A stretch of 64,000 bases of DNA from Candidatus Microgenomatus sp. (GTDB lineage: Bacteria > Patescibacteriota > Microgenomatia > UBA8517), in the NCBI GenBank assembly GCA_020724555.1, contig DYGT01000003.1, positions 21,415-85,414 on the forward strand. The letters run 5' to 3'. The position numbers and the translations under genes are program-made. The notes under the pieces were generated by a model. It was not told where the DNA came from, searched no databases, and saw nothing but the letters and a program-made list of their open reading frames with translations. Below, piece by piece: positions 12,931-53,614 of this stretch (position 1 is its first letter; each line of letters begins with the position of its first letter).

Positions 12931-12931
12931 C

Positions 12932-12958: not shown

Positions 12959-12974
12959 GATGTGTCAAGCCTTA

Positions 12975-14687: not shown

Positions 14688-14733
14688 ATTTTCTAATTAC
14701 AAACAATACACCCTTGTCGTTTTGATATCCAAT

Positions 14734-14762
14734 TTGATATTTTACCCCGTGTCAGCTATACT
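14734..14762 (+). promoter_or_regulatory. sigma70-like promoter for rpsT (TTGATA-17-TATACT)
   Basis: Read directly at 14734..14762, about 22 nt upstream of the rpsT ATG. Confidence 0.45.
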
Positions 14763-14784
14763 CTCAAAGCAAAAGGGAATAAAT

Positions 14785-15024: not shown

Positions 15025-15071
15025 CAGGCTTCAATATTTCCTCGGGCGTATGATATATTTAAGTAAATCAC

Positions 15072-18068: not shown

Positions 18069-18069
18069 A

Positions 18070-19196: not shown

Positions 19197-19682
19197 ATGA
19201 AAGATTTTTTAAGTAATAACAAGACAGCATTAATGGTAACCAGCATAACCGTGGTTTTGGCTGGTATTGCGGTGTTTACCGCTCTTCGCCTTTACCAGTT
19301 GCGAGACACCCAAGTGGCCCCCACCGCTCCCGAGCGGCCCAGAGCGGAGGCACCACAATCCTGCGAACTTTTCTCCTTTACTATTACCAATCCGTCGCAG
19401 ACGCCATCGGCTTCACCTACGGCAACGGCAACGGCGAAAGCGTCTCCTTCACCCACAGCTACTGCCACACCCACAGGGACACCCAAAGCTACGCCAACAA
19501 ATACTGCCACACCGACGGGTACTGGCCAAACAACACCCACTGCCACGCCAACCGCAACGGCACTGGCCCAAGGACCAACGGCGACTCCGGCTCTACCTGA
19601 TGCGGGCATAGGCACGCCCGCGATAGCGGGACTTGGAATGGGAGCGCTTTTGCTGCTTTTTGCGATACTTCTTGTCTTTTAA
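19197..19682 (+). CDS. small Pro/Thr/Ala-rich surface protein with N-terminal TM and C-terminal LPDAG + hydrophobic segment
   Basis: MKDFLSNNKTALMVTSITVVLAGIAVF...(PTATATxxSP)n...ATPALPDAGIGTPAIAGLGMGALLLLFAILLVF. Confidence 0.55.
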   Translation: MKDFLSNNKTALMVTSITVVLAGIAVFTALRLYQLRDTQVAPTAPERPRAEAPQSCELFSFTITNPSQTPSASPTATATAKASPSPTATATPTGTPKATPTNTATPTGTGQTTPTATPTATALAQGPTATPALPDAGIGTPAIAGLGMGALLLLFAILLVF

Positions 19683-22072: not shown

Positions 22073-22125
22073 AGTATTTCACTTGGCAAGTTGCATATAA
22101 ATATATAATATAAGAAGGTACACCC

Positions 22126-22518
22126 GTGAACAACGAAGCCACAAGCCCACAAAATAAACCACTCATTCTAATTGTAGAGGATGATAGGTTTCTTTCTAAA
22201 ATGTATGCGCAAAAATTTAAAATCGAAGGCTTTGAGGTGATCATAGCCCAGGATGGAGAACAAGGATTAAAGTATATAAGCGAACAAAATCCCCAAGCAG
22301 TACTTTTAGATATGATTTTACCCAAATATTCGGGCGGGCAACTATTGGAAAAACTAAAAGAGATGCAAAAAAATGTCGTAATCATTGCCCTCACCAACCT
22401 TGCCAACCAAGAAGATGCCCAGCGCGCCATTGCCATGGGGGCCAAAGAGTACCTCGTCAAAGCCATGCACACGCCCGAGGAAGTTGTAAATATTGTTAAA
22501 AAACATCTGGCGGGGTAA
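22126..22518 (+). CDS. stand-alone response-regulator receiver (CheY-like)
   Basis: 130 aa. LILIVEDD acidic pocket, phospho-acceptor D in LLDMILP, conserved T/K positions. No output domain and no kinase in the window. Confidence 0.85.
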   Translation: MNNEATSPQNKPLILIVEDDRFLSKMYAQKFKIEGFEVIIAQDGEQGLKYISEQNPQAVLLDMILPKYSGGQLLEKLKEMQKNVVIIALTNLANQEDAQRAIAMGAKEYLVKAMHTPEEVVNIVKKHLAG

Positions 22519-24415: not shown

Positions 24416-24449
24416 ATATTATTTTATTGTAACCTTTTAAAATGGAGTT

Positions 24450-25601
24450 ATGAACAAAAAAATAATAGGTATTGTTTTTATTTTAACTTTAATTGTTTAT
24501 TTTATATCTTCTCCCGGAAAAACACCTTACAACTATTTTGTTTATCTGGCCCAAAGCTTAGTCCAAGGGAAACTTTATCTTGTTAACCCACCTTCTTGGC
24601 TTAACGAACTTGCTCCTGCTGGGGGCAATTTATACGTGGTTTATCCACCCATGCCGGCTTTACTTCTTTTGCCATTCGTTACTTTTTTTGGCCAAGCGTT
24701 TGAACAGCAATGGTTGGCCCACATGCTGGGGGCCGGTGGCGTTACTTTAAGTTATATGCTTGCGCGTGCACTCAACAAAAGCGAGATTACAAGCCTTTGG
24801 GTTTGTATCTTAACCGGTTTTGGGACTATTGTTTGGTATCTGGCAAGCTCGGGGTCTGCCTGGTATTTAGGCCAAATCACAGCTTTCTTTTTTGTTATGG
24901 CGGCACTTGTTGAAAGCCAAAAGAAAAAAAGGGCTTTTTTGGTGGGTATTTTTGTGGGGTGCGCTTATTTGGCCAGACTACAAACAATTCTGGCCCTTCC
25001 ATTTTTTCTTTTCGTTTTGGGGGTAAAGGACAAAAAACTACAAATTACAAAAATAATTAAAATCTTAATCCCGGTTTTTATTTTTGTAAGCCTTAACGCC
25101 TTATATAATCTTTTGCGTTTCGGAAGCCTTTTTGATAAGGCATATGTTTTAATACCCGGAGTATTGGATGAGCCATGGTACAGCCGTGGATTGTTTCACC
25201 CTGGCTATATTCCCAGACACTTAAAAACCCTTTTCTGGAGCTTTCCCAGGGTCCATACAAAATTCCCATATTTTTCCCCGTCCTGGGGAGGATTGGCAAT
25301 CTGGATAACCACGCCGGCATTTATACTTATTTTTAAAGCCCCGCTAAAAAAAACGATTACGTACATTACCTGGTTTACAATAATTGCCATCTCTTTAGTA
25401 ATTTTTATGTATGGAAGCACCGGATTTTCCCAATTTGGATATCGCTACGCCGTGGATTTTTATCCATTTTTAATTTTTTTAATTATATTGGGAATCCACA
25501 GCAAACCAAAAGCTTACCACTGGCTGCTACTGGCGATTAGCATTGCCGTTAATTTATGGGGAGTACTTTTAATAAACAAACTGGGAATTGTGGGTTACTG
25601 A
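24450..25601 (+). CDS. polytopic membrane protein, putative GT-C (PMT_2/ArnT-like) glycosyltransferase
   Basis: 383 aa, about 10 TM, resembles bacterial PMT_2-type short mannosyltransferase-like proteins. Motif-level support is weak. Confidence 0.45.
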   Translation: MNKKIIGIVFILTLIVYFISSPGKTPYNYFVYLAQSLVQGKLYLVNPPSWLNELAPAGGNLYVVYPPMPALLLLPFVTFFGQAFEQQWLAHMLGAGGVTLSYMLARALNKSEITSLWVCILTGFGTIVWYLASSGSAWYLGQITAFFFVMAALVESQKKKRAFLVGIFVGCAYLARLQTILALPFFLFVLGVKDKKLQITKIIKILIPVFIFVSLNALYNLLRFGSLFDKAYVLIPGVLDEPWYSRGLFHPGYIPRHLKTLFWSFPRVHTKFPYFSPSWGGLAIWITTPAFILIFKAPLKKTITYITWFTIIAISLVIFMYGSTGFSQFGYRYAVDFYPFLIFLIILGIHSKPKAYHWLLLAISIAVNLWGVLLINKLGIVGY

Positions 25602-26716
25602 GCAAGCAAACTCTTTACCCAGCTTTGTACTTCGGACCAATCTTTTTTTCTGGGAACAAATACGTATAAATTTTGGAATTCACGGGGATCGGGGTTAATT
25701 AATAATTCCTCGGGCAAAGTATGGCTTTCAACTTCCGCACGCGCATCATAAACCCTGCGAGCCAAAATAGCAATTTCTCTCTCACTTAAATCAGTCTCCA
25801 GGCTTGCCATGGTTTCTTCCCAGATCTGCTTTAATTTAGACGGATTTAATACAATCTCTTTTGACATCAGCTTCTCTTTAAGCGCATGTAGTACTTGTTG
25901 CTGACGGAGCGATCTGGCAAAATCAGTGCCTTCGGCTTCATCCGCCGATTGCCTTGAACGCACATACTTTAATGCACGTTTGCCGTCCATGTGCTCTACC
26001 CCTTTTTCAAAAACTATTGTTTCATAGCGGCAGTTATATTCAGGGTCTCCTCCACAAAGATCGTTTTCCCGTCCGGGAATGGGGAAGCGGCTATCAGTAA
26101 AACCGTGCTCAATTTGCACATCAATTCCGCCGACAATATCAATTAATTTTTTATAATTATTAAAGTCGATCACAGCGGCGTAATGAATCGGAATCCCCAC
26201 AATTTCCTCAACCGTTGATTTGGCAAGTACCAACCCGCCTCCGTCTTCTTTTTCATTTCCCCAAAAATAAACACTGTTTAATTTTGTCTCAAGTTCCCCA
26301 ATCCAGATATCACGCGGCAGGGAAAAAAGCACAAAATTAGAATCTTTGGTATGACCAACGGATGCAACGATTATCGTGTCTGTCAGATCCGGCGCGGTAT
26401 AGCCCTCACCTGCTTTCCCCAAAATTAAAATATTGGTGCGCTTGTCTGTCTGGGCTACTCCCTCTGTCGGAGCAAACACAAACGCTTGAACCAAACTCAA
26501 ATATCTATCTGCTCCAAAAAGCAGCAAAAGCTTGTAGATAAAAATAAATGCAAAGGCAATTATCCCTAAAATTACAAATAAAAAACTCAAACGCATTACC
26601 CACAAATGGCGGGAAACAAGCCTTCTTTTCAAACGCATAAGTCCTGCTTTTAATTTTTTATTGTTTCGGTTTCTTGGATATGATTTTTTCGTGGTAGAAT
26701 GACCTTTGTCAACCAT
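25595..26716 (-). CDS. LytR-CpsA-Psr (LCP) family glycopolymer-peptidoglycan ligase
   Basis: N-terminal TM then NILILGKAGEGYTAPDLTDTIIVASV (LCP hallmark) and conserved Arg/Asp positions. Confidence 0.85.
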   Translation of the reverse strand: MVDKGHSTTKKSYPRNRNNKKLKAGLMRLKRRLVSRHLWVMRLSFLFVILGIIAFAFIFIYKLLLLFGADRYLSLVQAFVFAPTEGVAQTDKRTNILILGKAGEGYTAPDLTDTIIVASVGHTKDSNFVLFSLPRDIWIGELETKLNSVYFWGNEKEDGGGLVLAKSTVEEIVGIPIHYAAVIDFNNYKKLIDIVGGIDVQIEHGFTDSRFPIPGRENDLCGGDPEYNCRYETIVFEKGVEHMDGKRALKYVRSRQSADEAEGTDFARSLRQQQVLHALKEKLMSKEIVLNPSKLKQIWEETMASLETDLSEREIAILARRVYDARAEVESHTLPEELLINPDPREFQNLYVFVPRKKDWSEVQSWVKSLLAQ

Positions 26717-36869: not shown

Positions 36870-38363
36870 ATGCTTAAAAAATTTTTAATCAAACACGAAA
36901 AAAAGGCGCTTCGGTTTTTTGAAATTTTACCTGGGTTAATATCCTGGAACCTAATTCTTTTCCCTTACTGGGGGATATTTGTTATACCTAATATAGTTGC
37001 TTACTTTATACTTATATTTAATGCCTATTGGTTTTACCAGGCATTTGGCATAGCATTCACCTCCGTTTTATCGCACATGCGTATCCAAGCTTCCATGCAT
37101 TACGATTGGATGGGGGACCTTAAAAAATTTCCGGATTGGCAAAAGGTGCACCACGTTGTCATAATTCCAACCTACAAAGAACCTCTTTACATCCTTAAGC
37201 GTACAGTGGCATCGCTCGCCGCCCAAGAACTTCCTGGAAAACAAATAACCGTCGTCTTGGCTACAGAATTTAAAGAGGATAAAAAAGAGCGGGAAAAGAA
37301 AGCCCGGGCGCTTCAAAAAAAATATGGTGACAAATTCGCTAATTTTATCATTACTGTTCATAAACTAGCCCCGGGTGAGGCGGTCGGTAAATCTTCAAAC
37401 GAGCGTTATGCTGCCCTTGAGGCTAAACGCATTTTAATTACCGAGGGCAAAATGAACATCAATTACATGACCGTAACAAGTTGTGACGCAGACCACGTAT
37501 TTCACCCTAAACACTATTCGTCCCTTACTTTTAAATTTTTAGACAACCCAGACCGCTACCGTTATTTTTGGCAACCGGCCGTACTTTTGTACAACAACAT
37601 CTGGAAGCTGCCTGCCATCACCAGAGTTCCCAACACTCTTGCTTCTATTTTTATCCTATCCATGCTACCCCGGCGTGACCGTTTAATTAACCAGCAAAAC
37701 TACACTTTATCGTTTAAACTATTGGATAAAACAGGCTACTGGGATCCGGACAGAATTCCCGAGGACTGGGGTATTTTTTTCAAAGCCTTTTTTGCCAATA
37801 AAGGCAAAATTGAGGTGGAACCGATTTATCTTCCGCTCTACGCCGACGCCATGCAATCCACGAGCCATTGGCGGACATTAAAGGGGCAATATTCCCAGGT
37901 AAAACGTTGGGCCTGGGGAGTATCTGATTCGTCTTGGATTATTTACAATTATTTAATCACTCCCGGGATATCCTTTTGGGATAAAACTACCCGCGTAAGC
38001 ACTTTTATTCACGGCCATTTCCTATGGCCGGTGCATTGGTTTGTGATCACAATAGGAATAAGCTTACCCATCATCATTAACCCCGCTTTTGGGAGAACCA
38101 CTCTGGGATACTTAACGCCAAAAATCTCTTCGCTTATTTTGACCATTGCTTTGGTATTTTTAGTTGTGATGTTGATCTTAGATTACATTTATAAACCAAA
38201 GCGCCCCAAAGATTTTCCTCTCTGGCGGGCGCTTTTGGTACCTTTGGAATTTGTTCTCATGCCGGTGGCTACATTCTTTTTTACCACTCTTCCCGGCCTT
38301 GACGCCCACACCCGCTTGATGCTAGGCAAATACATCGAATACAAAGTTACGGAGAAAGTTTAA
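36870..38363 (+). CDS. processive GT2-family beta-glycan synthase (CesA/BcsA/PgaC-like), integral membrane
   Basis: VIIPTYKEP, DxD (TSCDADHV) and QxxRW (QVKRWAWG) motifs, flanked by TM helices at both ends. Starts at the nucleotide after the metG stop. Confidence 0.85.
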   Translation: MLKKFLIKHEKKALRFFEILPGLISWNLILFPYWGIFVIPNIVAYFILIFNAYWFYQAFGIAFTSVLSHMRIQASMHYDWMGDLKKFPDWQKVHHVVIIPTYKEPLYILKRTVASLAAQELPGKQITVVLATEFKEDKKEREKKARALQKKYGDKFANFIITVHKLAPGEAVGKSSNERYAALEAKRILITEGKMNINYMTVTSCDADHVFHPKHYSSLTFKFLDNPDRYRYFWQPAVLLYNNIWKLPAITRVPNTLASIFILSMLPRRDRLINQQNYTLSFKLLDKTGYWDPDRIPEDWGIFFKAFFANKGKIEVEPIYLPLYADAMQSTSHWRTLKGQYSQVKRWAWGVSDSSWIIYNYLITPGISFWDKTTRVSTFIHGHFLWPVHWFVITIGISLPIIINPAFGRTTLGYLTPKISSLILTIALVFLVVMLILDYIYKPKRPKDFPLWRALLVPLEFVLMPVATFFFTTLPGLDAHTRLMLGKYIEYKVTEKV

Positions 38364-38810
38364 CTAAAGCCATAAATTAAATAAATAAACTGTAGTGATT
38401 ACTGAAACTACGGTAATTACCTGACAGGTGATTTGATAGATAAACCAGATAGTATATTCATCATTGAAAATTTTATAGCCGGGCAGGGATTTGCCTGGCA
38501 TACGTTTAACCTCAGAAAATTGCTGATTGAAATAATAAATTGTTTCCCCAACGCTTCGCACAAGCCAAAAAACAGAAAAAATAAGCAAAAACAAAACCCA
38601 GTCATTTAAAGCCAAGCTAACAATCGCAGCTCCCAACCAAAACAGACCAAATATTACTCCATCTGCCCAAACAAATATTCCCAGAGGCAAGAGGGGATAG
38701 GTGATCCCCAGATTATTATTTTTATACTTACATTGATAGAGGCTAAAAATAAAAACCAGAAAATTAAATACGGCAAAAAGAGTTATAGATAAATTTTGCA
38801 AACTGGTCAT
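38364..38810 (-). CDS. small polytopic membrane protein, hypothetical
   Basis: Start moved to the internal Met (MTSLQNLSITLF...). The first 30 codons of the ORF-track model read through the 113-bp repeat copy in reverse orientation and are unlikely to be real. Confidence 0.45.
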   Translation of the reverse strand: MTSLQNLSITLFAVFNFLVFIFSLYQCKYKNNNLGITYPLLPLGIFVWADGVIFGLFWLGAAIVSLALNDWVLFLLIFSVFWLVRSVGETIYYFNQQFSEVKRMPGKSLPGYKIFNDEYTIWFIYQITCQVITVVSVITTVYLFNLWL

Positions 38811-38826
38811 GGTTGTATTATATACA

Positions 38827-38939
38827 AAAATTGCTTTCCCCAAATCATAGAAATCATCCGCCGCGACACTTCTCCGCCTTTGTACAATATCACCGAACAC
38901 CTAGCTTTCAGACTCTTTGGCGTCAGCGAAATTACCATC
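38827..38939 (+). pseudogene. orphan 5' fragment of a GT-C glycosyltransferase gene: 113-bp near-perfect direct-repeat copy A of 41264..41375
   Basis: Encodes PQIIEIIRRDTSPPLYNITEHLAFRLFGVSEITI, identical to residues about 30-63 of the intact GT-C protein at 41177..42535. A single-C insertion lies after position 38929. Confidence 0.75.
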
Positions 38940-38995
38940 CCGCGGGCTTTACGCCATTATGCACCAATTATTAATCTGGCGCGGGTTAAGAGAAG

Positions 38996-41086
38996 CTAAA
39001 ACGGATACCCTGAAACAAGCATATAGTAACCACCCTGTTTGGTAACCACGGCCACGGTTTTATTCACCATGTCAAGAACTGAGTTGGGAAGGACCTTCCA
39101 CACTTCACCATCTTGGGAATATGCAAGCTTAAGGTTACCCTCTGGAAGGTTGGGGTCTAGTTTAATGGGATCATACTTAATGGCCAATAAGTATGGTGTA
39201 GCAATAACCTCAGGCATGATTTTGGCGTCATTAAAAAATGACTTGTACCAAGCGTTGTAAATGCCGCTTGCCTGCCAATATGCCCCACTTACCCGTCTTG
39301 TTCCTGTCTGGGGGGTATGGGAGACGTCAAGGTATACATCCCACAAGAATGTCGCAGGCGGGGCAAAAGAAATTACATCATTTTTGACAGTGAATCCTGA
39401 GTGTGTGGCCAAAAGATCAGGCTTTTTGGGGGTAGGAGCCGGAGCACCCGGACCAGGGATGCTTCCCCCAAAGTTAGGGCCAAACTCGGAAGTGCTGCCA
39501 TTTTTGTTGGTGGCAAGGGCGGTGAAAGTGCTTAAGCTTCCTTTACTGTCCCCGGAAACCGTTACCTCCATGCTCCACATGCGCTCGGAAGTAGTCATTG
39601 TCCCTAAAGATTCAAGACACCCTCCATAGCCTGAGGAGTGATTTGAGGATTTACACACCTCAATGGTAAATGGCGCCTCAGCTAAATTCCCCTCCAGCCA
39701 TCCCCAGATTTTGTATTTTCCATTTCCCAGATATTCCGCCCCTTGGATTTCCGGGTAGTTCATAAGGTCGTTTGGACCGGTGTCAGTATCCCCAGGGTCG
39801 TTAGGTGTTACCGTATCGCGATCGTCCCCAGCCGTCAATAAAGCGATATCGAGATTTGCGTTTCCGAAAACCCTGTTTTCTCTAAAGGTAATGCCGGATG
39901 ACTGATTAAAATCGATGCTAATTCCATTGCCATTGTTATGGGCTACCACATTTTTTCGAATGAGAACATTTGATGAATCAGCGTCTCGAACGACTAAGCC
40001 AGCCCGGATAAATATACCGCTGAGTGCATCGAAATCAGGGTTTGTACCGATATAATTTCCTTGAACTGTAGTCTCTGAAACTTTCATCAGCCGGACCAAC
40101 CCTCGTTCTTCGGTCGTTATACAGGCAAAAATGTTTGCCTCTTCACTATCGGATACGCCATCGAAATTTGTGCCTATTTGATGCCCAGTACCATTATATA
40201 AGTAAAGGTGATTTCTATATCTATCTCCTCCAGCACATTGTTTTCCAGTCTTATCAACGCCGACGTAGTTTCCAGCAAAGACAAACTCAGAACTCGGTGG
40301 CGCCCCAGTAAACAGCTCGCTAACTAAAAATGTTCCTTTATTTCCAGCATTGTAGTTTGATCCCATGATCAAATTGCGCTCGCCAATATCATCGTTCCCA
40401 TCCCCATTGGTTCCGAAAGTATTTCGGTGTGAACCATTATGAAACAGAAAACTTGCATAATTACTTGAAGTTGAGCCGCTAATGTCACTACCGAAAAAAT
40501 TCCCGTCTATCCGATTGTCATTTGAAGAGTTAAAGAAAAACGTGGCTCTACCAGGATATGCTGATCGAATCGCCAATCCACTTATTCGGTTTTTATCACC
40601 TGTGAAGTTCATCCCATCGACGTTTGCATTAACGTAGAGAGCGATTGTCAATTTGGTATTTAGCGTCTCGCCGAAAGCTGCGGTGTTTCTGGATGCACCT
40701 GTTTGGGAATAGCCGTTTATGAAAACGCCTTCCTCATCCGAAAGTGCAAGTGTGCTGGTACTTTCAATTTCCCAATAAGCATGTACGTCACCGGAGGCCG
40801 GAACATAACCAGCGTCGGTATCTGGAATATCAAATTCAATGGTGTCGTGGCCGGCGTTGGCGTTGGCGGCGGCGATGGCTTCTCTGAGGGAACAGTCGGC
40901 GTCACAGACACCATCGTTGGTGTCTTCCGTTTTGGTGACCGTATAGGTTGCGGCGCGAACCAATGAATGATTATTAATAACTAATGGATAAAAAAACAAA
41001 AAAGCCAGACTCAAAAATAGACCGCCTAAGAAACCTATTAAGAGTTTATGTGAGTGAGTGAGTGAGTGGGTGGGTGAGCATTGCAT
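38996..41086 (-). CDS. secreted parallel beta-helix (pectate-lyase-like PbH1 repeat) protein with SSR-containing signal peptide, in-frame (phase-ON)
   Basis: MQCSPTHSLTHSHKLLIGFLGGLFLSLAFLFFYP leader is paralogous to the NHL gene leader. The body has repeated NxxxGNxxxxxxGxxI beta-helix rungs (NRIDGNFFG, ISIDFNQSSGITFRENRVFGN). Confidence 0.7.
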   Translation of the reverse strand: MQCSPTHSLTHSHKLLIGFLGGLFLSLAFLFFYPLVINNHSLVRAATYTVTKTEDTNDGVCDADCSLREAIAAANANAGHDTIEFDIPDTDAGYVPASGDVHAYWEIESTSTLALSDEEGVFINGYSQTGASRNTAAFGETLNTKLTIALYVNANVDGMNFTGDKNRISGLAIRSAYPGRATFFFNSSNDNRIDGNFFGSDISGSTSSNYASFLFHNGSHRNTFGTNGDGNDDIGERNLIMGSNYNAGNKGTFLVSELFTGAPPSSEFVFAGNYVGVDKTGKQCAGGDRYRNHLYLYNGTGHQIGTNFDGVSDSEEANIFACITTEERGLVRLMKVSETTVQGNYIGTNPDFDALSGIFIRAGLVVRDADSSNVLIRKNVVAHNNGNGISIDFNQSSGITFRENRVFGNANLDIALLTAGDDRDTVTPNDPGDTDTGPNDLMNYPEIQGAEYLGNGKYKIWGWLEGNLAEAPFTIEVCKSSNHSSGYGGCLESLGTMTTSERMWSMEVTVSGDSKGSLSTFTALATNKNGSTSEFGPNFGGSIPGPGAPAPTPKKPDLLATHSGFTVKNDVISFAPPATFLWDVYLDVSHTPQTGTRRVSGAYWQASGIYNAWYKSFFNDAKIMPEVIATPYLLAIKYDPIKLDPNLPEGNLKLAYSQDGEVWKVLPNSVLDMVNKTVAVVTKQGGYYMLVSGYPF
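41050..41078 (-). repeat. short, interrupted (GTGA)4-(GTGG)2-GTGA tract in the leader-peptide codons of the beta-helix gene
   Basis: gtgagtgagtgagtgagtgggtgggtgag, encodes the THSLTHS leader and is in frame with ATG 41086. Confidence 0.9.
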
Positions 41087-41176: not shown

Positions 41177-42535
41177 TTGCCGCTATATTTAAATATGAAC
41201 CAGTTTACAGCTCCTTTGTGGGGAGATGAGGCATTTTCCGCCATTTTGTCCATGAAATCTATCCCCCAAATCATAGAAATCATCCGCCGCGACACTTCTC
41301 CGCCTTTGTACAATATCACCGAACACCTAGCTTTCAGACTCTTTGGCGTCAGCGAAATTACCATCCGCGGGCTTTCTTTTTTTTATTATCTTTTAACCAT
41401 TGTTTTTGTCTTTTTAATCGCCAAATTAATCTGGGATAAAAAAACCGCCATTTTAGCTTCACTTTTAACCTTTTTTAACCCCTTTTTCTTTATTTATGCT
41501 TTTGAAGGAAGGATGTACGCGATCATGGCTTTGGGGGTAGCAGGCTCCATGTATTTTTTCCTAAAATTATTATTTGCTGCAAAAAAAACCAATAAAGCCC
41601 CAAAAGGAACCATCTTGGGCTACATTCTTGCAACCTCCTGGGCTTTGTACAGCCACCACTTTGCCATATTTATTGTCTTTATTCAGGGATTTTGGTGGCT
41701 CTTTGAATTAATCACAAAAAATTTCAAATTTATAAAATGGCAATTAATCGCGTTTCTTGGCACCGGAATTTTATATATACCCTGGCTTTTGCCTTTATAT
41801 GAGCAAACACAAATGGTAGGTGGGGGATTTTGGTTGGGTAAACCTACTTTAACAGATTTAAGAACATTAATTTATGAATACATTGCCACAGGCATCAAGC
41901 ACCCTTTGGCAGACTATGCCTTATACCTTAGTTTAACCGCACTACTCATCAGGCGCTGGGATAAAAATATCAAAATCAGCCTCATCCTCGCAACTTGGTT
42001 TTTAGGCCCAATCATTATGACATTTACAATCTCCCAATTTTTCCAGCCGGTTTTTTACAACAGATACCTTTTGTACACCATCCCGGCTTGGGGGCTTCTT
42101 ATTGCCGGCGCCAGAAGAAAAGTAATTTCTTTTATAATTATCGCCGGCATTTTGAGTCTTTTTATCCGCATTGATTGGCATTATTTTAATAATCCCACAA
42201 AACTTCCTTTTAACCAGCTTGCTCAGTTTGTTATTGAAAGTAAAAGAAACGACGATACTTTAATAAACTGGTCTGCCGGTTCACACCACTTATGGGAAAG
42301 CAAATTCTACGGGATTCCCGCCCCGATTTATGTAAAGGAAGGTGGGGGAGAGCTTCCTTTTTTTGTGGGTACGGCACTTATGGAAGAAACGGATGTAATA
42401 AAAACTTTGCCTGATGAAGGCCGAATTGGCGTTATCACGAGTGGCCCAGTTGAGGAAGTTGCCATTACTGGTTATACTGAAATTGAGAGCAAATCTTTTG
42501 GCAATCTTAAATTTATATGGCTAGAAAAAAATTAA
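41177..42535 (+). CDS. GT-C superfamily glycosyltransferase (PMT/ArnT-like) with N-terminal DE motif
   Basis: 452 aa, about 11 TM. WGDEAFSAILS catalytic DE motif in the first extracytoplasmic loop. Contains repeat copy B (41264..41375). Confidence 0.7.
   Translation: MPLYLNMNQFTAPLWGDEAFSAILSMKSIPQIIEIIRRDTSPPLYNITEHLAFRLFGVSEITIRGLSFFYYLLTIVFVFLIAKLIWDKKTAILASLLTFFNPFFFIYAFEGRMYAIMALGVAGSMYFFLKLLFAAKKTNKAPKGTILGYILATSWALYSHHFAIFIVFIQGFWWLFELITKNFKFIKWQLIAFLGTGILYIPWLLPLYEQTQMVGGGFWLGKPTLTDLRTLIYEYIATGIKHPLADYALYLSLTALLIRRWDKNIKISLILATWFLGPIIMTFTISQFFQPVFYNRYLLYTIPAWGLLIAGARRKVISFIIIAGILSLFIRIDWHYFNNPTKLPFNQLAQFVIESKRNDDTLINWSAGSHHLWESKFYGIPAPIYVKEGGGELPFFVGTALMEETDVIKTLPDEGRIGVITSGPVEEVAITGYTEIESKSFGNLKFIWLEKN
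41264..41375 (+). repeat. direct-repeat copy B (112 bp) inside the GT-C gene, identical to 38827..38939 except for 1 nt
   Basis: Base-by-base comparison of the two segments. Confidence 0.95.
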
Positions 42536-44025
42536 ACCAATTCCTAAACGCCATTCATACCCCGAACTGGGTTGCTCTTCTACTTTTAGGGCTATTTTTG
42601 CTTCGCATCCCTAGTTTTTTTGAGCCTTTTAATTATGGCGATGAAATGATTTATTTGACGCTTGGCCAGGGAATTAACAAAGGGCTTGTCTTATATAAAG
42701 ACATCCACGATAACAAACCTCCCCTTTTGTACCTTACCGCGGCTGTAGCTGGAAACGTTTTTTGGTTTAGGGTAATACTGGCATTTTGGATGATGGCTAC
42801 TACCATAATTTTTTGGAAGTTAACAGACAGGCTTTTTCCCAAAAATACAAAGCTTGTCAAAGCCGCCACAATCTTTTTTGGCATCTTTACGACCATTCCT
42901 TTGCTGGAAGGCCAAACCGCCAATGCTGAATTATTTTTAATAGGACCGGTTATCGCTGCTTTTTATCTGGTTGTTAACAAAAAGGCAAAACTTTGGCACT
43001 ACGCTTTCTCGGGGTTATTGTTTTCCATCGCTACATTATTTAAAGTTCCGGCGGCTTTTGATGGTTTAGCATTAATTTTTGTTTTGTTTATTCTTAGTAA
43101 AAATAAATTAAACAAAAAGGATTTCTTTCAAAAAAGCCTGTTGGTCTTGTTCGGCTTTATAACCCCAATTTTTGTGAGTTTTGTTTGGTACTGGTTGCGC
43201 GGCGCCTTGAATGAATATCTTGTTGCAGCATATTTACAAAATGTAGGTTATCTTTCCTCCTGGCGGCCCGGGGACGCCACTGAGCCTTTTATTGTGCGAA
43301 ACGCCCCGCTTCTTGCCAGGGGTGTCGTTATGTTTGCCGGTTATGCAATCCTTTATCTTTACCGCAAAAAATTGTCACTTCCCTTTTTACTGGGAAGCGC
43401 CTGGCTACTAAGCAGTCTTTTTGCCATAACTTTGTCGGAGCGGCCTTATCCTCATTACCTGGTGCAAGCCATTCCCGCGATTTCTCTCTTGTTTGGGATG
43501 CTACTTTTCAAAAAAGACATAGAACAAACCTTTACTATTATTCCCTTATTTTTGGCACTACTTGTACCTGTATATTATAATTTCTGGCACTATCCGACGC
43601 TACCTTACTACACACGATTTATTAATTTTGCAACGGGTGCTATTAACAAAGAAGAATACTTTAACCGTTTCGAAGGCAATGTTAACCGTAACTATGAAAT
43701 TGCCAAATTTTTACGCGAATCCAGTGCGCCTCACGATCGGGTATTTGTCTGGGGAGATGCGGCATCAACTATCTATGCTCTTTCAAGAAGACTGCCGCCA
43801 ATTAAATATGTAGCAACCTACCACATCAACGATTTCGCAAGCAAAGAAGAAATAATCACGGCCATAGATTCCCAAAAACCCGCATATGTTATAGTATTAT
43901 CCGAAGCTGAACATTTTAACGAACTTAATTCTTATTTAAATTTAAATTACATGCAAATAAAGACAATAGACGACGCCGTTATCTGGCGTCTTATTAATCC
44001 CCGGGTGCTGAGTATCATCCGCTAG
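42517..44025 (+). CDS. GT-C superfamily glycosyltransferase (ArnT/PMT-like), second paralog
   Basis: 502 aa, NYGDEMIYLTLGQ DE motif after TM1, about 12 TM, C-terminal soluble domain. Overlaps the upstream GT-C stop. Confidence 0.7.
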   Translation: MARKKLNQFLNAIHTPNWVALLLLGLFLLRIPSFFEPFNYGDEMIYLTLGQGINKGLVLYKDIHDNKPPLLYLTAAVAGNVFWFRVILAFWMMATTIIFWKLTDRLFPKNTKLVKAATIFFGIFTTIPLLEGQTANAELFLIGPVIAAFYLVVNKKAKLWHYAFSGLLFSIATLFKVPAAFDGLALIFVLFILSKNKLNKKDFFQKSLLVLFGFITPIFVSFVWYWLRGALNEYLVAAYLQNVGYLSSWRPGDATEPFIVRNAPLLARGVVMFAGYAILYLYRKKLSLPFLLGSAWLLSSLFAITLSERPYPHYLVQAIPAISLLFGMLLFKKDIEQTFTIIPLFLALLVPVYYNFWHYPTLPYYTRFINFATGAINKEEYFNRFEGNVNRNYEIAKFLRESSAPHDRVFVWGDAASTIYALSRRLPPIKYVATYHINDFASKEEIITAIDSQKPAYVIVLSEAEHFNELNSYLNLNYMQIKTIDDAVIWRLINPRVLSIIR

Positions 44026-44026
44026 T

Positions 44027-44392
44027 ATGAAGAAAAAAAAAATTTCTAACCTGCCAATTAGCCGGCTGGCATTCCCATCTACCTACTTAGTGGTACTGGT
44101 ATTTAATCTTTTAACAATAGCTTTAATATTTTTGCTAAAATCACAGCTTCCTCCTGAAATTCCGCTTTTTTATGGCAGGCCTTTTGGCCAAGAGCAACTG
44201 GCGCAAAGCATCAAGCTGATTATTCTGCCTATAACGGCTTTTGTTATTGCACTTTTTAATGCAATACTTAGCGTTGTTATAAGCAGCCGTTTTTTAACAC
44301 AAATACTTTTAGGGGTGGCGATTATCACCACCACCCTTGCCTTTATAGCCGTACTGCAGATTATATTTTTGGTAGGCAGCTTTTGGCCATGA
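44027..44392 (+). CDS. small 3-4 TM membrane protein (GtrA-like size/topology, unverified)
   Basis: 121 aa, sits between the GT-C genes and the WecA-like gene in the same operon. Confidence 0.4.
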   Translation: MKKKKISNLPISRLAFPSTYLVVLVFNLLTIALIFLLKSQLPPEIPLFYGRPFGQEQLAQSIKLIILPITAFVIALFNAILSVVISSRFLTQILLGVAIITTTLAFIAVLQIIFLVGSFWP

Positions 44393-45450
44393 ATCAAACA
44401 TTTCATCTAGCTTTTGTCGTTTCTGCTTTTTTAGCTTTTATCCTTACTTATCCTGTAATTAAATTGGCAAAAAAATGGGGGATTGTGGACGACCCCCAAA
44501 AAAACAAACACCCCAAAGTCACTCACACCTATCCGGTGCCAAGGGGAGGTGGTTTGGCAATATACTTAAGCTTGGTTATAAGCGCCTTATTTTTTTTACC
44601 ATTAGACCAACACTTATTGGGAATTATCCTTGGTGCCAGCGTCCTTCTCATCGTCGGCCTGCTGGATGACAAATTTGACCTTAACCCCTACCTCAGGCTG
44701 GGGGCTCAATTTTTAGCAGCATCTCTTCCTATTATGGCCGGCATCGGTATCGCATATATGACAAACCCTTTTGGTGGAATTATTGACCTTTCCCATCCAC
44801 AAATAAGTTTTTTTCTGTTTGGCGAAACCAGAAGTATTTGGATTTTGTCAGACTTGTTTGCCCTTTTTTGGATCGTCACTTTGATAAATTTCATAAATAT
44901 GGGCGCCAAAGGAGTAGACGGCCAGCTTCCCGGGGTCGCGGCTATCGCTGCTTTTACATTGGCTGTTTTATCTCTTCGTTTTTCTGCCGACATTACCGAA
45001 TGGCCGGTAATAATCCTTGCACTCATCACCGCCGGGGCATTTTTGGGTTTTTTACCTTGGAATATGTATCCGCAAAAAATAATGCCGAGTTTTTCAGGGT
45101 CTAACTTAGCCGGCTACATGCTGGGGATTCTTTCGATCTTAACAACCGCCAAAATCGGAACGCTTTTGTTGGTCTTGGGCATCCCGCTTATCGATACCAG
45201 TTTTACAATAATAAGGCGCATCTCCCACGGAAAATCGCCCGTCTGGGGGGATAGGGGACACCTTCACCATAAACTTTTGGATGCAGGCCTTCCGCGCAAA
45301 AGTATTGCTCCCATATATTGGCTGTTTACAGCAATTCTTGGCTTTGGTGCTTTATATTTGAACGCCACCAATAAGTTATATACAATATTGGGGATCTCAT
45401 TATTATTGGCGGGAATACTGCTATGGCTTACCTATCGACAAAAACATTAA
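44383..45450 (+). CDS. polyprenyl-phosphate N-acetylhexosamine-1-phosphate transferase (MraY/WecA/TagO GT4 family)
   Basis: GLLDDKFDL (DDxxD), NFINMGAKGVDGQLPG (NxxNxxDGxDGL), GDRGHLHHKLL (His-rich cytoplasmic loop). About 10 TM. Confidence 0.85.
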   Translation: MAMNQTFHLAFVVSAFLAFILTYPVIKLAKKWGIVDDPQKNKHPKVTHTYPVPRGGGLAIYLSLVISALFFLPLDQHLLGIILGASVLLIVGLLDDKFDLNPYLRLGAQFLAASLPIMAGIGIAYMTNPFGGIIDLSHPQISFFLFGETRSIWILSDLFALFWIVTLINFINMGAKGVDGQLPGVAAIAAFTLAVLSLRFSADITEWPVIILALITAGAFLGFLPWNMYPQKIMPSFSGSNLAGYMLGILSILTTAKIGTLLLVLGIPLIDTSFTIIRRISHGKSPVWGDRGHLHHKLLDAGLPRKSIAPIYWLFTAILGFGALYLNATNKLYTILGISLLLAGILLWLTYRQKH

Positions 45451-46373
45451 TTGGCTTAATCCGGGTTGCCAGGCCCGTACATTGGATCAAAAACTTAGGA
45501 ATTTTTGCAGCTATAATTTTTTCCGGAACCTTATTTGTGGAATCATATTTTATAAAAACTGTACTGGGATTTTTAATTTTTAACCTAGCCGCAAGCGCAA
45601 CTTACACCTTTAATGACCTCCTTGACGTCAAGCAAGATCGCCTGCATCCCATTAAAAAAAATCGGCCGATAGCAAACGGCAGTGTGCCTCCACCTTTAGC
45701 GCTGGCCTATGCCGCTTCATTAGCCTTAAGCGCCTTGGTTTTTGCCTACTTTTTGTCTTACCTTTTTTTCATTCTAATAGGTATTTATCTCGCCTTGCAG
45801 GTTGCCTATTCTTTGTACCTTAAAAATATTCCCGTAATTGACATTTTAATTATTGCGTCCGGTTTCATCATCCGCGTTTACTCAGGTGCTTTTCTTATAG
45901 ACGCACATTTATCCGTGTGGTTTCTTTTGTGTGTGGTATCGGTGGCTTTATTTTTGGCCTCTGGTAAAAGAAGAGCTGAAATCGGGGTAGTAAAAGAAAA
46001 GGGGAGTACACGAAAAGTTTTGTCTAAATATTCACCTGAACTACTTAATTCTTATGTAACTATGTTTGGCAATGCGGCGTGGATGAGCTGGGCATTGTTC
46101 ACTTTTTTTGAATCACCCGAGGCCAGCCGGCCTTTATGGCTTTTTTTGGCAGAACTATCGCGCACCACCACCATTAACAAACTTTTGATGACCACTGTAC
46201 CTGTAACAATATTCGGCATCATGCGTTACCAGAGTTTAATTTTCCAAAACCGCTCGGAAACTCCCGAAAAACTGCTTTTGACGGACCGCGCATTGATTTC
46301 TTCCGTTACGGTTTGGTTAGTGATGGTAATATCGATATTATATAGCGGCTTGGTTATTGGCTTTGCTCTTTAA
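45423..46373 (+). CDS. UbiA-family prenyltransferase, decaprenyl-phosphate 5-phosphoribosyltransferase (DPPR synthase, Rv3806c)-like
   Basis: NDLLDVKQDRLHPIKKNRPIANG matches the NDxxDxxxD...RP(I/L)AxG signature of DPPR-synthase-type UbiA enzymes. About 8 TM. Confidence 0.7.
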   Translation: MAYLSTKTLIGLIRVARPVHWIKNLGIFAAIIFSGTLFVESYFIKTVLGFLIFNLAASATYTFNDLLDVKQDRLHPIKKNRPIANGSVPPPLALAYAASLALSALVFAYFLSYLFFILIGIYLALQVAYSLYLKNIPVIDILIIASGFIIRVYSGAFLIDAHLSVWFLLCVVSVALFLASGKRRAEIGVVKEKGSTRKVLSKYSPELLNSYVTMFGNAAWMSWALFTFFESPEASRPLWLFLAELSRTTTINKLLMTTVPVTIFGIMRYQSLIFQNRSETPEKLLLTDRALISSVTVWLVMVISILYSGLVIGFAL

Positions 46374-47241
46374 GGGTAGCATACTGGGAAGATATCCAGC
46401 CGGTTGTTTCCTCATCGATTTGGATTTCATACCAATCTTCTTGTTTATCCAAAAGCAGGTATTCTTCACCCGGTTTCACTTGGGTTATCTCCGGGGCGCC
46501 GGTAGACGCCTCCGCCCGGACTCGTAAAAATCCGGTAGGCGTATCTAAAATTACCACCAATTCTTCGGCATTTTCATCAATTTCTTCCCCGTCTTTAGCT
46601 TCATCCGTTTGTGCCTCTTCTTCGGGTACTTTGGCCATTTCTACATAAGCAGTCAAACTATAACCCGATATTAACTGAACTGAAAACGATCTTTCTTTAT
46701 AGCCTTCTGCTTGCAACATTATCACATGGATCCCGGGGTCCAAATCATTATATTTAACAGGGGTTAAGTCAATATAATTTTGATCCACATAAAGACTGGC
46801 GCCTTCCGGCACGCTCACTACCGACAAACTTACATTCCCATTTGCTTCTTTTTCAAAGGATATTTCTTCGCCTTGACTCATGCCCTCCTCTGCCCCAAAT
46901 TCGCGTCGCACAATAGTTTCAACTCCTGAAGTTAAAAACACTTTCGTCTCATATGGCATCAGGGCTTGTTCAAAAGATTCCGGAACTAGCTTTAAATCAA
47001 TTTCATGCTCCTCAAATTCCCCTTCATAAGGGGTTTTGCCCACCTGTTCACCGTTCACAAAAACCTGGGAAACAGGATCTGTTTCAACCACAAGCATGGC
47101 TTTTGCAGGATTAATTACAAACCGCCAAACTAAAAAGGCGACTAAAGCCAGTACTAATAAGAATATTGCTATGAAAATAAATCTTTTTTTTCTCACGTCA
47201 CCCAGTTTAGCAAACACAAAAACTCTTGACAAATAAAACAA
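46354..47241 (-). CDS. membrane-anchored PEGA-domain + SH3b-domain protein
   Basis: N-terminal TM, PEGA-like beta-sandwich (MLVVETDPVSQVFVNGEQVGKTPYEGEF), acidic linker, C-terminal bacterial SH3 (GFLRVRAEASTGAPEITQVKPGEEYLLLDKQEDWYEI...GWISSQY). Confidence 0.6.
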   Translation of the reverse strand: MFYLSRVFVFAKLGDVRKKRFIFIAIFLLVLALVAFLVWRFVINPAKAMLVVETDPVSQVFVNGEQVGKTPYEGEFEEHEIDLKLVPESFEQALMPYETKVFLTSGVETIVRREFGAEEGMSQGEEISFEKEANGNVSLSVVSVPEGASLYVDQNYIDLTPVKYNDLDPGIHVIMLQAEGYKERSFSVQLISGYSLTAYVEMAKVPEEEAQTDEAKDGEEIDENAEELVVILDTPTGFLRVRAEASTGAPEITQVKPGEEYLLLDKQEDWYEIQIDEETTGWISSQYATLKEQSQ

Positions 47242-51967: not shown

Positions 51968-53614
51968 TCAATCAAACAAATTGGTTTGGGCGTTTTTAAG
52001 CCTTTTAAGCTTTATCCTTTCAAGCTTTTTAAGGGCTTGGGAGTCTTTTGTAACTTTAAAATATTTGTTTATCAGACCATAAAATTGCGAGGCCTGCGTT
52101 TTTTTATTTTTTCGTTTTTTGGCCCGCGTTATCACAAGTTTATTTTTTGCACGCGTTAAAGCAACATACAAAAGCCGCTTTTCCTCTTCAAGCATCGCGC
52201 TATTTTGCGCCTTAGAGCTCGGAATTACTCCCTTTTCAAACCCCAATAGATAAACACAATCAAATTCCAGGCCTTTTGCCGCGTGTATGGTCATAACCGA
52301 AATCGCCTTTGCTTTTGGGTCATAAAAATTATTGGAGGATAAAATGTCCAGATAATTTAAAAACGCACCAATAGAGTTTTCTTGTTTATCATAATGGGCA
52401 ATCACATCAATAAACTCACCAATGTCTTTTAAACCGGCTTTTTGCGAAATATTAATAACCAAATCGCTTAATGGGACATCTTTATTAAAGGTATATTTAT
52501 CTTCTGCAAAAGATACTACTTGGGGGTTTACTTTTTCCCGATCACCGTTTAAAAAACGCAAAACATCAATAATAAAAGCAACTTTTTTATCTAAATATAT
52601 GGATTCTCCCGACACATCCTGATACGGAATATTGTTTTTGGCAAGGGTTTTTTTTATAACATTTGCCAGAAAATGGGTTCTGGCCAAGATTGCAATATTA
52701 GACAAATCCATGTCTTTTTCATCGTTATAAGTACTTGCTTCCAATAAATCAACGCCGCCCAAACTTTTTTTAATGTCGGCGACTATGTATTCTGCTTCAG
52801 AAAATTCATTAGGAGTGTGTAAAAAAATAAGCTCTCCCTTTGTTTTGTTGTGGGTTTTTAACTTAGTTTTTGTCGGAAACAAAGCTTGCGACGTTGCCAC
52901 TATCGGCTCTGCGCTTCTATACGTTTCAGCAAAAACAATTGTTTTGCTCTGATAATCTTTTTTAAACCTGCCAAAAATCATGGGCTCGCTTCCGCGGAAA
53001 GCGTAAATTGCCTGGTTGGGATCGCCTATCACTTGGACGCAAGCATTCCCGCTTATTTTTTGTAAAAATTTATATTGGGCCGGGTTAGTGTCTTGGAATT
53101 CATCAACAAAAATAAAATCATATTTAGGAAACTTGGTAAGATTCATGGCCTCAAGAATAAGATCGTCAAAATCCCAATAACCTTCTTTCTTAAGGAGCTT
53201 GTTATACTCACCACAAAGCTTTTCGGAAATCTCATCAACACTTCCGCCGCCTTTCTGCCGGGAAATCACAAGCGATGCCTCAGAAACTTCAACCTTATAT
53301 TTTTTGGCAAGTGATTTTATCAATACCAGGCGTTTGTAATCATCGATAAGATTTAGTTTTTTGTTTTGGCTCAAAAGTGAAAAACAAAAGCCATGGAAAG
53401 TGTTAATAATAACGTTTTTTTTGTGCCCCACCCTGCTTTCAAGCTCTCCGGCCGCTTTTTTTGTAAAAGTTAAGGCTAAAATATTTTTATTTTTAGTGGC
53501 TTCTTTTTTTATTTTTTCGGAAAGGGCAAGGGTCTTACCCGTTCCCGGACCAGCGATTACCGAAGCGTGAGAATTTGTGTTTAAAAAAGCTACTTGCTTG
53601 CCATTAAGTTTCAT
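51968..53614 (-). CDS. UvrD-family SF1 helicase (very short, 548 aa)
   Basis: Motif I (IAGPGTGKT), II (DEFQDTN), III, V-VI (VALTRAKN). 4-bp overlap with the upstream PHP-domain gene. Confidence 0.85.
   Translation of the reverse strand: MKLNGKQVAFLNTNSHASVIAGPGTGKTLALSEKIKKEATKNKNILALTFTKKAAGELESRVGHKKNVIINTFHGFCFSLLSQNKKLNLIDDYKRLVLIKSLAKKYKVEVSEASLVISRQKGGGSVDEISEKLCGEYNKLLKKEGYWDFDDLILEAMNLTKFPKYDFIFVDEFQDTNPAQYKFLQKISGNACVQVIGDPNQAIYAFRGSEPMIFGRFKKDYQSKTIVFAETYRSAEPIVATSQALFPTKTKLKTHNKTKGELIFLHTPNEFSEAEYIVADIKKSLGGVDLLEASTYNDEKDMDLSNIAILARTHFLANVIKKTLAKNNIPYQDVSGESIYLDKKVAFIIDVLRFLNGDREKVNPQVVSFAEDKYTFNKDVPLSDLVINISQKAGLKDIGEFIDVIAHYDKQENSIGAFLNYLDILSSNNFYDPKAKAISVMTIHAAKGLEFDCVYLLGFEKGVIPSSKAQNSAMLEEEKRLLYVALTRAKNKLVITRAKKRKNKKTQASQFYGLINKYFKVTKDSQALKKLERIKLKRLKNAQTNLFD

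Follow-up and report, generated by a model that had tools for sequence, protein, structure and literature searches.

A conserved Woesebacteria operon predicted to provide a lipid-carried ribose-type donor for an envelope glycan

The 64 kb stretch of DNA analysed here (the window) contains five open reading frames (ORFs) at positions 41177–46373 of the + strand that overlap or abut one another, and this operon and the glycan pathway it may encode are the subject of the present analysis. In order of transcription the ORFs encode two membrane glycosyltransferases of the GT-C type (GT-C1 of 452 and GT-C2 of 502 amino acids), a small membrane protein of 121 amino acids, a GT4 family transferase of 355 amino acids and a protein of the UbiA fold of 316 amino acids, and this gene content and its position agree with an initial annotation that was made from the DNA letters. 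The GT-C1 stop at 42535 and the GT-C2 ATG at 42517 overlap by 19 nt as read from the sequence, a spacer of 1 nt separates the GT-C2 stop (44025) from the small ORF, whose ATG is at 44027, this small ORF is joined to the GT4 gene by an ATGA stop/start overlap at the probable GT4 ATG (44389), and the GT4 stop (45450) and the UbiA ATG (45423) overlap by 28 nt. Judged by these junctions, the operon is real and translationally coupled. The initial ORF positions stood, whereas the upstream TTG starts they included are disfavoured, the likelier starts being ATG 41195 for GT-C1 and ATG 44389 for GT4. A promoter consensus scan of the operon gave signal no higher than expected from shuffled sequence, and none of the internal terminator signals was convincing. 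Base composition was uniform (approximately 0.40–0.42 GC) and for this reason recent import is not suggested. The nearest homologues of every protein were found in metagenome-assembled genomes (MAGs) of Candidatus Woesebacteria, Microgenomates or Patescibacteria, and the host is a Candidatus Woesebacteria bacterium of the Patescibacteria, or Candidate Phyla Radiation (CPR).

The last gene of the operon (45423..46373, + strand) encodes the UbiA-fold protein, which matched the Pfam UbiA family with 76 bits and the NCBIfam model NF008978 for decaprenyl-phosphate phosphoribosyltransferase (DPPR synthase) with 220.2 bits against a cutoff of 207. Two sister models of DPPR synthase gave 218.8 bits (NF008977, slightly under its cutoff of 234) and 162.9 bits, in comparison to 55.8 bits for the best of the other prenyltransferase models tested, which included MenA, UbiA, heme-O and GGGP. 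The only PDB relatives of the protein were structures of Mycobacterium tuberculosis Rv3806c (8j8j, E 3e-36). The motif NDLLDVKQDRLHPIKKNRPIANG, which the initial annotation had singled out as DPPR-synthase-like, aligned to N73–G95 of Rv3806c and that description holds; the same annotation had named affinity with menaquinone or other prenyltransferases as the outcome that would speak against it, and the bit scores pointed the other way.

In Rv3806c, residues N73, D77 and Q135 contact Mg2+ and ribose, K28, Y70 and Y157 contact the ribose 5'-phosphate, R22, K87, R90, Y138, K143 and K208 contact pyrophosphate, and K28, Y157 and K191 contact the decaprenyl-phosphate head group; the phosphoribose sites are not conserved among ordinary UbiA enzymes (PMC10994848). 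Alignment placed R22, K28, Y70, N73, D77, K87 and R90 of Rv3806c at R17, K23, Y61, N64, D68, K78 and R81 of the window protein, and Q135, Y138, K143, Y157, K191 and K208 at Q126, Y129, K134, F148, K182 and K198. All 13 mapped contact positions are thus kept, one of them (Y157) with a Tyr to Phe exchange that is also seen in some mycobacteria (PMC10994848). With the exception of K198, the mapped residues were invariant among 35 homologues, including the Mg2+/ribose ligands N64 and D68 (NDxxD) and Q126, and the polyprenyl-phosphate head-group ligands K23 and K182. By its sequence the protein belongs to the class of polyprenyl-phosphate 5-phosphoribosyltransferases (PPPRS) of the DPPR synthase type, and it is predicted to use phosphoribosyl pyrophosphate (PRPP). 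It is scarcely credible that it is instead an ordinary prenyltransferase of quinone, heme O or lipid synthesis and that no lipid-linked pentose is made: the protein does match the Pfam UbiA family and some annotations name its homologues 4-hydroxybenzoate polyprenyltransferase, yet the DPPR synthase models scored 160–220 bits against at most 56 for all other prenyltransferase models, and the PRPP-specific residues of Rv3806c are both conserved and invariant. The hidden Markov model (HMM) scores and the PRPP-site residues together rule out a quinone or other prenyltransferase identity.

The GT4 gene (44383..45450, + strand; probable start ATG 44389) encodes a WecA/TagO-like protein of the PNPT family, predicted to be a polyprenyl-phosphate N-acetylhexosamine-1-phosphate (HexNAc-1-phosphate) transferase whose exact substrate is uncertain. 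It matched PF00953 (Glycos_transf_4) with 83.3 bits, and on NCBIfam scored 100.7 bits with WecA (TIGR02380, cutoff 326), 64.6 bits with archaeal MraY and 45.2 bits with MraY, values far under the equivalog cutoffs of WecA and MraY. Identity was 27% to Escherichia coli WecA and 21% to MraY. The DDKFD motif aligned with DDRFD of WecA and DRGHLHH with DRQHIHH of WecA, both being at least 90% conserved in 82 sequences, and the NCBI annotation pipeline (PGAP) names the orthologue undecaprenyl/decaprenyl-phosphate GlcNAc-1-P transferase. It is unlikely that this protein is the MraY of the cell, as WecA outscored MraY in bits and identity and the histidine motif reads HLHH in comparison to HHH in MraY. 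The PNPT catalytic-loop motif (NxxNxxDGxDG) at residues ~169–184, NFINMGAKGVDGQ, differs from those of WecA and MraY: the loop AKGVDGQ stands in place of VDGIDGL in WecA and TDGLDGL in MraY, so that Lys takes the position of the first DGxDG Asp and one residue is inserted, whereas the second Asp is retained. The Lys-for-Asp departure was kept in at least four lineages and may mark a separate PNPT subfamily or substrate.

Between GT-C2 and GT4 lies the gene for the 121 amino acid membrane protein (44027..44392, + strand). Three hydrophobic segments were recognised by eye, the first followed by a motif LPPxxPLFYG that was conserved in 81 sequences, and no family match was obtained in Pfam or NCBIfam, even at E 5. 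In two distant lineages, represented by loci L088 (8026–9540, 504 amino acids) and L091 (1902–3350, 482 amino acids), the protein forms the N-terminal part of a fusion with GT4, and for this reason we propose that it serves as an accessory subunit of the GT4 phosphoglycosyltransferase. A GtrA/SMR-type flippase was considered as an alternative identity and is disfavoured by the lack of a family match at E 5 and by the GT4 fusions, which favour a subunit, albeit a flippase role is still conceivable.

GT-C2 (42517..44025, + strand) is modelled as an ArnT-like membrane domain followed by a small C-terminal alpha/beta domain. The Pfam PMT_2 score was 21.5 bits, below cutoff, and the AlphaFold model built from a 60-sequence alignment had a pLDDT of 89.7 and a pTM of 0.89. 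Foldseek comparison of this model to PDB gave ArnT as the best match (5f15, E 8e-7, TM 0.54), followed by STT3, PglB, ALG9 and PimE, with sequence identity to ArnT of 13–14%, and matches to the mycobacterial Emb/Aft enzymes were marginal (AftB E 0.17; EmbB E 0.61). A phmmer search of the GT-C proteins against PDB sequences found no Emb/Aft match, and PDB sequence searches with GT-C1, GT-C2 and the upstream GT2 protein described below gave nothing useful. The model therefore places GT-C2 confidently in the GT-C fold, with a predicted resemblance to ArnT and oligosaccharyltransferases (OST). The donor of ArnT is an undecaprenyl-phosphate-linked pentose, 4-amino-arabinose. Three motifs of GT-C2 (YGDE, HDNKPP and SERPYPHY) were invariant in 60 homologues. 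PGAP names the GT-C2 orthologue a DUF2029 domain protein and the precomputed Pfam family is PF27757 (Ccs4), for which the literature gave no biochemical function.

GT-C1 (41177..42535, + strand; probable start ATG 41195) matched PMT_2 (PF13231) with 30.6 bits against a cutoff of 26.1 and its orthologue is named a GT39 family protein by PGAP, indicating a PMT_2/GT39-like enzyme. BLASTP between GT-C1 and GT-C2 gave E 0.02, so they are not close paralogues. The Asp-Glu motif noticed in both proteins by the initial annotation was verified in the first extracytoplasmic loop, where it is invariant in GT-C2 (YGDE) and nearly so in GT-C1 (WGDE, at least 90% conserved in 36 orthologues).

Conservation of the operon was surveyed in one genome per GTDB species, among which 145 species possessed a close relative of the UbiA-fold protein. 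Neighbourhoods were counted in the best 80 of the 145 loci, all of which were of Woesebacteria or Microgenomates type, using those loci with enough flanking DNA (hence denominators of 62–79). The GT4 gene was directly upstream of the UbiA gene in every case (79/79), the small protein was likewise always present (78/78) and GT-C2 was present in 76 of 77 loci, with median gaps in approximately 78 species of 12 nt from GT-C2 to the small gene, 1 nt from the small gene to GT4 and −28 nt from GT4 to UbiA. A 497 amino acid GT2 protein was encoded further upstream in 53/62 loci and a convergent gene for a PEGA/SH3 protein followed in 73/77. GT-C1 was present in 34 of 70 loci and belongs to a variable slot between GT2 and GT-C2, which according to species was empty (14/80), held GT-C1, held an RmlB/UXS-like NAD-dependent short-chain dehydrogenase/reductase (SDR; ~19/80) or held other genes. 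In the window the slot has, in addition to GT-C1, two minus-strand genes (38364–41086): a 178 amino acid ORF and a gene for a 696 amino acid protein of the right-handed beta-helix type that begins with a CSLREA domain. GT-C1 is therefore accessory and GT-C2 is the sole GT-C of the conserved core. A polymer built by such genes had been called unusual for this kind of bacterium, a view that does not agree with the survey, as the module is lineage-wide in Woesebacteria and their relatives and the NCBI pipeline already gives its genes these names. Many of the MAG records surveyed (L005, L006, L010, L018, L020 and others) are titled 'uncultured Gammaproteobacteria bacterium', and one 'Alphaproteobacteria', and carry loci whose gene content and order are plainly Woesebacteria-like; these titles look wrong.

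Genes for MetRS, RmuC, DprA and HSP20 are also collinear across Woesebacteria, and because of this housekeeping collinearity more distant relatives were examined. When the library was clustered at 50% identity the Woesebacteria UbiA proteins formed approximately a single full-length cluster, the next relatives being 36–46% identical. Two of these, L085 and L087, have UbiA proteins 44–45% identical to that of the window. In L085 a GT-C2-like protein, the small protein, GT4 and UbiA recur between entirely different flanks, and L087 contains GT2, a GT-C2-like protein, the small protein, GT4, UbiA and the convergent PEGA/SH3 gene. In L088 and L091 (36–40% identity) GT2, the small protein–GT4 fusion and UbiA are followed downstream by Wzy_C-family and PEGA/SH3 proteins. 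A Candidatus Shapirobacteria contig (L086, 1431–10611) lacks GT4 and has four PMT/PMT_2 GT-C genes and a methyltransferase gene after the PPPRS gene, whose start is overlapped by the gene for a 403 amino acid amine-oxidase-type FAD oxidoreductase (NCBIfam NF005560, 374 bits). In these distant contexts (L085–L091), too, the PPPRS repeatedly occurs together with polytopic glycosyltransferases of the envelope. GT4 is its most persistent partner, and the small protein pairs with GT4.

It could be argued that the genes share no common pathway, that their adjacency derives from conserved gene order in small CPR genomes, and that the PPPRS feeds other GT-Cs whilst GT4 starts an unrelated polymer. MetRS, RmuC, DprA and HSP20 are indeed syntenic across Woesebacteria and at least three further GT-C-type proteins in the window could use the donor. 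The start/stop overlaps conserved in ~78 species speak against such an arrangement, as does the persistence of the GT4–UbiA pair, often with GT-C2 and the small protein, where flanking genes wholly differ, and we regard separate pathways as improbable.

Two side observations concern the distant loci. The FAD oxidoreductase of L086 could provide an alternative tailoring of the lipid-linked pentose. Downstream of the module, L085 has a large cluster in convergent orientation (10960–19081) encoding an MptA/B-family GT-C, a GT2, a PMT_2 GT-C, a GT2–GtrA-like fusion, two NAD-dependent epimerase/dehydratases and a UDP-glucose dehydrogenase, a set of genes reminiscent of a pathway, Arn-like or via a UDP-pentose, that would supply a second lipid-linked sugar.

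Two neighbours usually accompany the operon. The 497 amino acid GT2 protein (36870..38363, + strand), the most conserved protein of the neighbourhood, matched PF13632 and resembles membrane-embedded processive synthases of the hyaluronan/cellulose-synthase type. It has a GT-A domain with DxD, ED and QxxRW elements, readable as the largely invariant motifs CDAD, PEDWG and QVKRW, and flanking transmembrane helices. Its AlphaFold model had a pLDDT of 69.8, a moderate confidence with a confident GT-A core, and the best Foldseek matches were Chlorella virus hyaluronan synthase (7sp7, E 8e-6) and then bacterial cellulose synthase BcsA. Convergent with the PPPRS gene, and overlapping its 3' end by 20 nt, is a gene (46354..47241, − strand) for a membrane-anchored protein with two PEGA stretches (56.9 bits), an acidic linker and an SH3b domain (SH3_3, 46.9 bits), which is a candidate wall-binding partner or acceptor. 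A gene for a GalU-like UDP-glucose pyrophosphorylase is found 1.5 kb downstream of the operon.

The LCP-family glycopolymer–peptidoglycan ligase reported earlier at 25595..26716 (− strand) was confirmed by PF03816 (98 bits) and TIGR00350 (85.6 bits, cutoff 62.3). It is a possible downstream ligase, but its gene lies 15 kb from the operon, to which it is not linked, and adjoins other GT-C-type genes (19679–25601). Together with the LCP gene these form a second envelope-glycan group (19679–26716), which contains a 797 amino acid PMT-type GT-C, a 138 amino acid ORF without a family match, a 639 amino acid DUF2298/DUF6798-like membrane protein and a 383 amino acid putative glycosyltransferase of the LA_3751/LA_3752 family. 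The total of GT-C-type proteins in the window is at least four or five.

The remaining window genes include MurJ, a FemAB pair, the LCP protein, type IV pilus PilN/PilO, chaperones and several UvrD-type helicases, a content that fits a peptidoglycan-walled CPR bacterium. The PilN- and PilO-like assembly genes (15072–16332) are followed by a gene for a 451 amino acid fibronectin-III/Big_13 protein (16713–18068), and these may specify surface structures that are conceivable glycosylation targets. Three UvrD/Rep-family helicase genes are located at 26753–28603, 30650–33592 and 51968–53614, one of them with a C-terminal PD-(D/E)XK nuclease domain (AddA-like), and the window also carries RmuC, DprA and a ComM-like Mg-chelatase-family ATPase.

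A pathway of related design was described by Kelly et al. (PNAS 2024; PMC11127046), where a PRPP-dependent polyprenyl phosphoribose synthase of the UbiA fold, a 5'-phosphatase, a flippase and a GT-C add extracytoplasmic pentofuranose side chains. The sugar is set by the epimerase present, ribofuranose resulting when there is none, xylofuranose with an SDR epimerase and arabinofuranose with DprE1/E2 (PMC11127046). The corresponding functions were looked for in the window, where the scan covered ORFs including all those of at least 120 amino acids taken as genes, and in relatives, where the 25 most frequent unassigned clusters of neighbour genes within 10 kb in 80 species were judged by reading sequences and one (c9) was scanned with HMMs. 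As the initial annotation had stated, neither a DprE1-type protein (FAD_binding_4/ALO) nor a DprE2-type SDR was present among the scanned window ORFs, and none was recognised within 10 kb in the 80 species, the clusters being mostly read by eye. The window ORFs scanned included no DPM1/GtrB-type lipid-hexose synthase. The 316 amino acid PPPRS has no extra domain in Pfam or NCBIfam that could represent a fused phosphatase, and in longer UbiA-family proteins (350–456 amino acids) checked for such fusions the UbiA domain alone was detected.

These results bear on the mycobacterial analogy that the initial annotation had drawn. On an arabinogalactan-like route, DprE1/DprE2-type enzymes encoded elsewhere would convert the donor to a lipid-phosphate arabinofuranose, the GT-Cs would polymerise an arabinan on a linker made by the WecA-like enzyme and the LCP protein would ligate it to peptidoglycan. 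In favour of this possibility the PPPRS, the WecA-like enzyme, GT-Cs and LCP all occur in one window, and the FAD oxidoreductase that overlaps the UbiA start in the Shapirobacteria relative L086 implies that some Microgenomates may tailor the lipid-pentose oxidatively. Against it, the scanned ORFs of the window included no DprE1- or DprE2-type gene and none was recognised up to 10 kb away in the 80 species, whose neighbour clusters were mostly read by eye, and GT-C2 resembles ArnT/OST with AftB and EmbB marginal, while the LCP gene is 15 kb away beside a different GT-C group and not linked to the operon. The analogy is weak on these grounds, and an arabinogalactan-like product appears quite unlikely.

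Our preferred interpretation is that the operon most likely makes a lipid-carried, ribose-type donor to build or decorate a Woesebacteria envelope glycan, and we consider this probable with appreciable room for doubt. From the enzyme classes, the operon structure and their conservation we infer donor–acceptor relations, sugar identity and product fate as follows. The PPPRS would first move 5-phosphoribose from PRPP to polyprenyl phosphate at the cytoplasmic face of the membrane, after which 5'-dephosphorylation and flipping would be performed by proteins encoded outside the module. The resulting lipid-phospho-ribofuranose would be used extracytoplasmically by GT-C2, and by GT-C1 where present, as suggested by the GT-C fold and gene adjacency; the sugar is ribofuranose by default, because no epimerase is linked. 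On the same lipid pool GT4 and its 121 amino acid subunit may make a polyprenyl-diphospho-HexNAc primer that would act as acceptor or anchor of the pentosylated glycan. The upstream GT2 may provide a backbone polymer and, more speculatively, linkage of the product to peptidoglycan could fall to the LCP ligase, whose gene is unlinked. Candidates for the final acceptor are a wall polymer ligated by LCP, the polymer made by the GT2 synthase and a surface protein. This retains the general idea first proposed for the operon, namely a lipid-linked pentose donor feeding GT-Cs together with a WecA-type initiator, and narrows it to GT-C2 as the core enzyme, GT-C1 being present in about half of species. 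It also widens the five-gene set described at the outset, in which the conserved upstream GT2 and the pairing of the small protein with GT4 had been overlooked.

Several observations weigh against the ribose-type donor interpretation. Neither a PAP2/HAD 5'-phosphatase nor a dedicated MATE, SMR or GtrA flippase was found among the scanned window ORFs or within 10 kb in 80 species (with clusters mostly read by eye), and as a result the dephosphorylation and flipping steps rest on unseen genes. The sugar substrate of GT4 is uncertain because the protein scored far under the WecA equivalog cutoff and has Lys for the first Asp of its catalytic loop. Much of the Woesebacteria synteny could reflect general collinearity, given that MetRS, RmuC and DprA are also conserved. 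In L088 and L091 there is no GT-C beside UbiA, GT-C2 being absent from these contigs and a Wzy_C-family protein being found instead, so that the GT-C link is less universal than the GT4 link.

With regard to the acceptor, the GT-Cs might alternatively place pentofuranose from the lipid donor directly on proteins such as pilins, S-layer or the PEGA/SH3 protein, with GT4 serving another glycan. This would be in line with the PMT_2/GT39-like character of GT-C1, with OST and PglB being among the good structural matches of GT-C2, with PilN/PilO in the window and with a PEGA/SH3 convergent neighbour even in distant lineages, and a precedent exists in the TfpW-dependent arabinosylation of Pseudomonas aeruginosa pilin (PMC11127046). 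The PPPRS is, however, coupled most tightly and most persistently to a phosphoglycosyltransferase, an enzyme whose product is a lipid-diphosphate-linked sugar; one-step protein O-pentosylation would not require this coupling, and we consider direct protein glycosylation unlikely, though with a small chance of being correct.

A more specific form of the ribose-type donor interpretation, to which we give a limited though real chance, is that Woesebacteria and other Microgenomates carry an undescribed wall-linked pentofuranan, which the GT-Cs would build outside the cell from polyprenyl-phospho-ribofuranose on a polyprenyl-diphospho-HexNAc primer. Such a polymer, equally tentative, would correspond, on a ribofuranose basis, to mycobacterial arabinan or to teichoic acids, with its primer made by the two-part phosphoglycosyltransferase that is co-translated with the PPPRS, and would then be transferred to peptidoglycan or a surface protein. 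In a more unusual variant the 5'-phosphate may stay on the sugar and enter the polymer or the GT4 reaction, which is conceivable because no phosphatase is linked.

The names of the individual genes were already available from automated annotation and the general principle was published in 2024 (PMC11127046), the main text of which does not mention Patescibacteria. In the literature collection that we searched, no paper linked DPPR synthase or GT-C enzymes with CPR/Patescibacteria. What is new is that the PRPP-dependent pentofuranose principle reaches another phylum with a different gene architecture. CPR/Patescibacteria, ultra-small bacteria of which most are uncultured, account for much of bacterial diversity, and their envelope chemistry is essentially unexplored. 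Almost all of the Woesebacteria genomes examined retain the module, which would spend PRPP and polyprenyl phosphate on a lipid-linked pentose, although these genomes are <1 Mb in size, and this retention suggests that its product matters to the envelope or to host attachment. The PPPRS, the GT4 and small-subunit pair and GT-C2 are clonable targets for in vitro reconstitution, and ribofuranose is the predicted marker sugar for enrichments.

Among known systems the best analogue and nearest precedent is the three-component pentofuranosylation system and not the mycobacterial arabinogalactan pathway. As in the Citrobacter youngae O1/O2 system (ORF15/ORF14/ORF12; PMC11127046), the Woesebacteria operon encodes a PRPP-using UbiA-fold phosphoribosyltransferase beside a GT-C, has neither DprE1/E2 nor an ORF13-type epimerase linked, and a WecA-type enzyme would initiate the modified glycan. 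In contrast to that system, the Woesebacteria module has no fused HAD phosphoribose phosphatase, no linked PAP2 and no gene for a MATE, SMR or GtrA flippase. The GT-C of the three-component system is of CAZy family GT136; GT-C2, at most a candidate for that family, is DUF2029 by PGAP with ArnT as its closest solved structure. Further differences are that the Woesebacteria PPPRS is translationally coupled to a phosphoglycosyltransferase with a small subunit and that a GT2 of synthase type and a PEGA/SH3 protein accompany the module. The host, moreover, belongs to the CPR, has a peptidoglycan wall and shows no sign of an outer membrane or O antigen.

The mycobacterial decaprenyl-phosphoarabinose (DPA)/arabinogalactan pathway is similar in possessing the Rv3806c homologue with the same active-site residues, and a WecA-like initiator, GT-Cs and an LCP ligase (Lcp1 in mycobacteria) are here within one genome region. 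It differs in that DprE1/E2, an Rv3807c-type phosphatase and an Rv3789-type protein were not found here, and in that the GT-Cs here do not resemble the Emb/Aft enzymes. The mycobacterial wecA gene is not located beside Rv3806c, whereas the GT4 and PPPRS genes overlap in the present operon.

Two further systems resemble parts of the module. The Group A carbohydrate of Streptococcus (GacO, GacI/GacJ, GacK and GacL) is reportedly started by a WecA-type enzyme and receives its side chains extracellularly from a GT-C whose donor is a sugar on polyprenyl monophosphate, and GacJ is said to be a small membrane protein that activates a lipid-sugar synthase. The likeness would thus extend to the WecA-type primer, the extracellular GT-C decoration and a small membrane partner, but the donor synthase there is reportedly a GT2 that uses UDP-GlcNAc and not a PRPP-dependent UbiA-fold enzyme, and the small protein of the present module pairs with the phosphoglycosyltransferase. 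ArnT, the undecaprenyl-phosphate-L-Ara4N:lipid A transferase, is the best structural match of GT-C2 and has in common with it the acidic motif of the first loop and, as predicted for GT-C2, a polyprenyl-monophosphate donor of pentose type. It is set apart by the 13–14% identity, by a donor derived from UDP-GlcA, by the absence of lipid A in this type of organism and by the C-terminal alpha/beta domain that GT-C2 has of its own.

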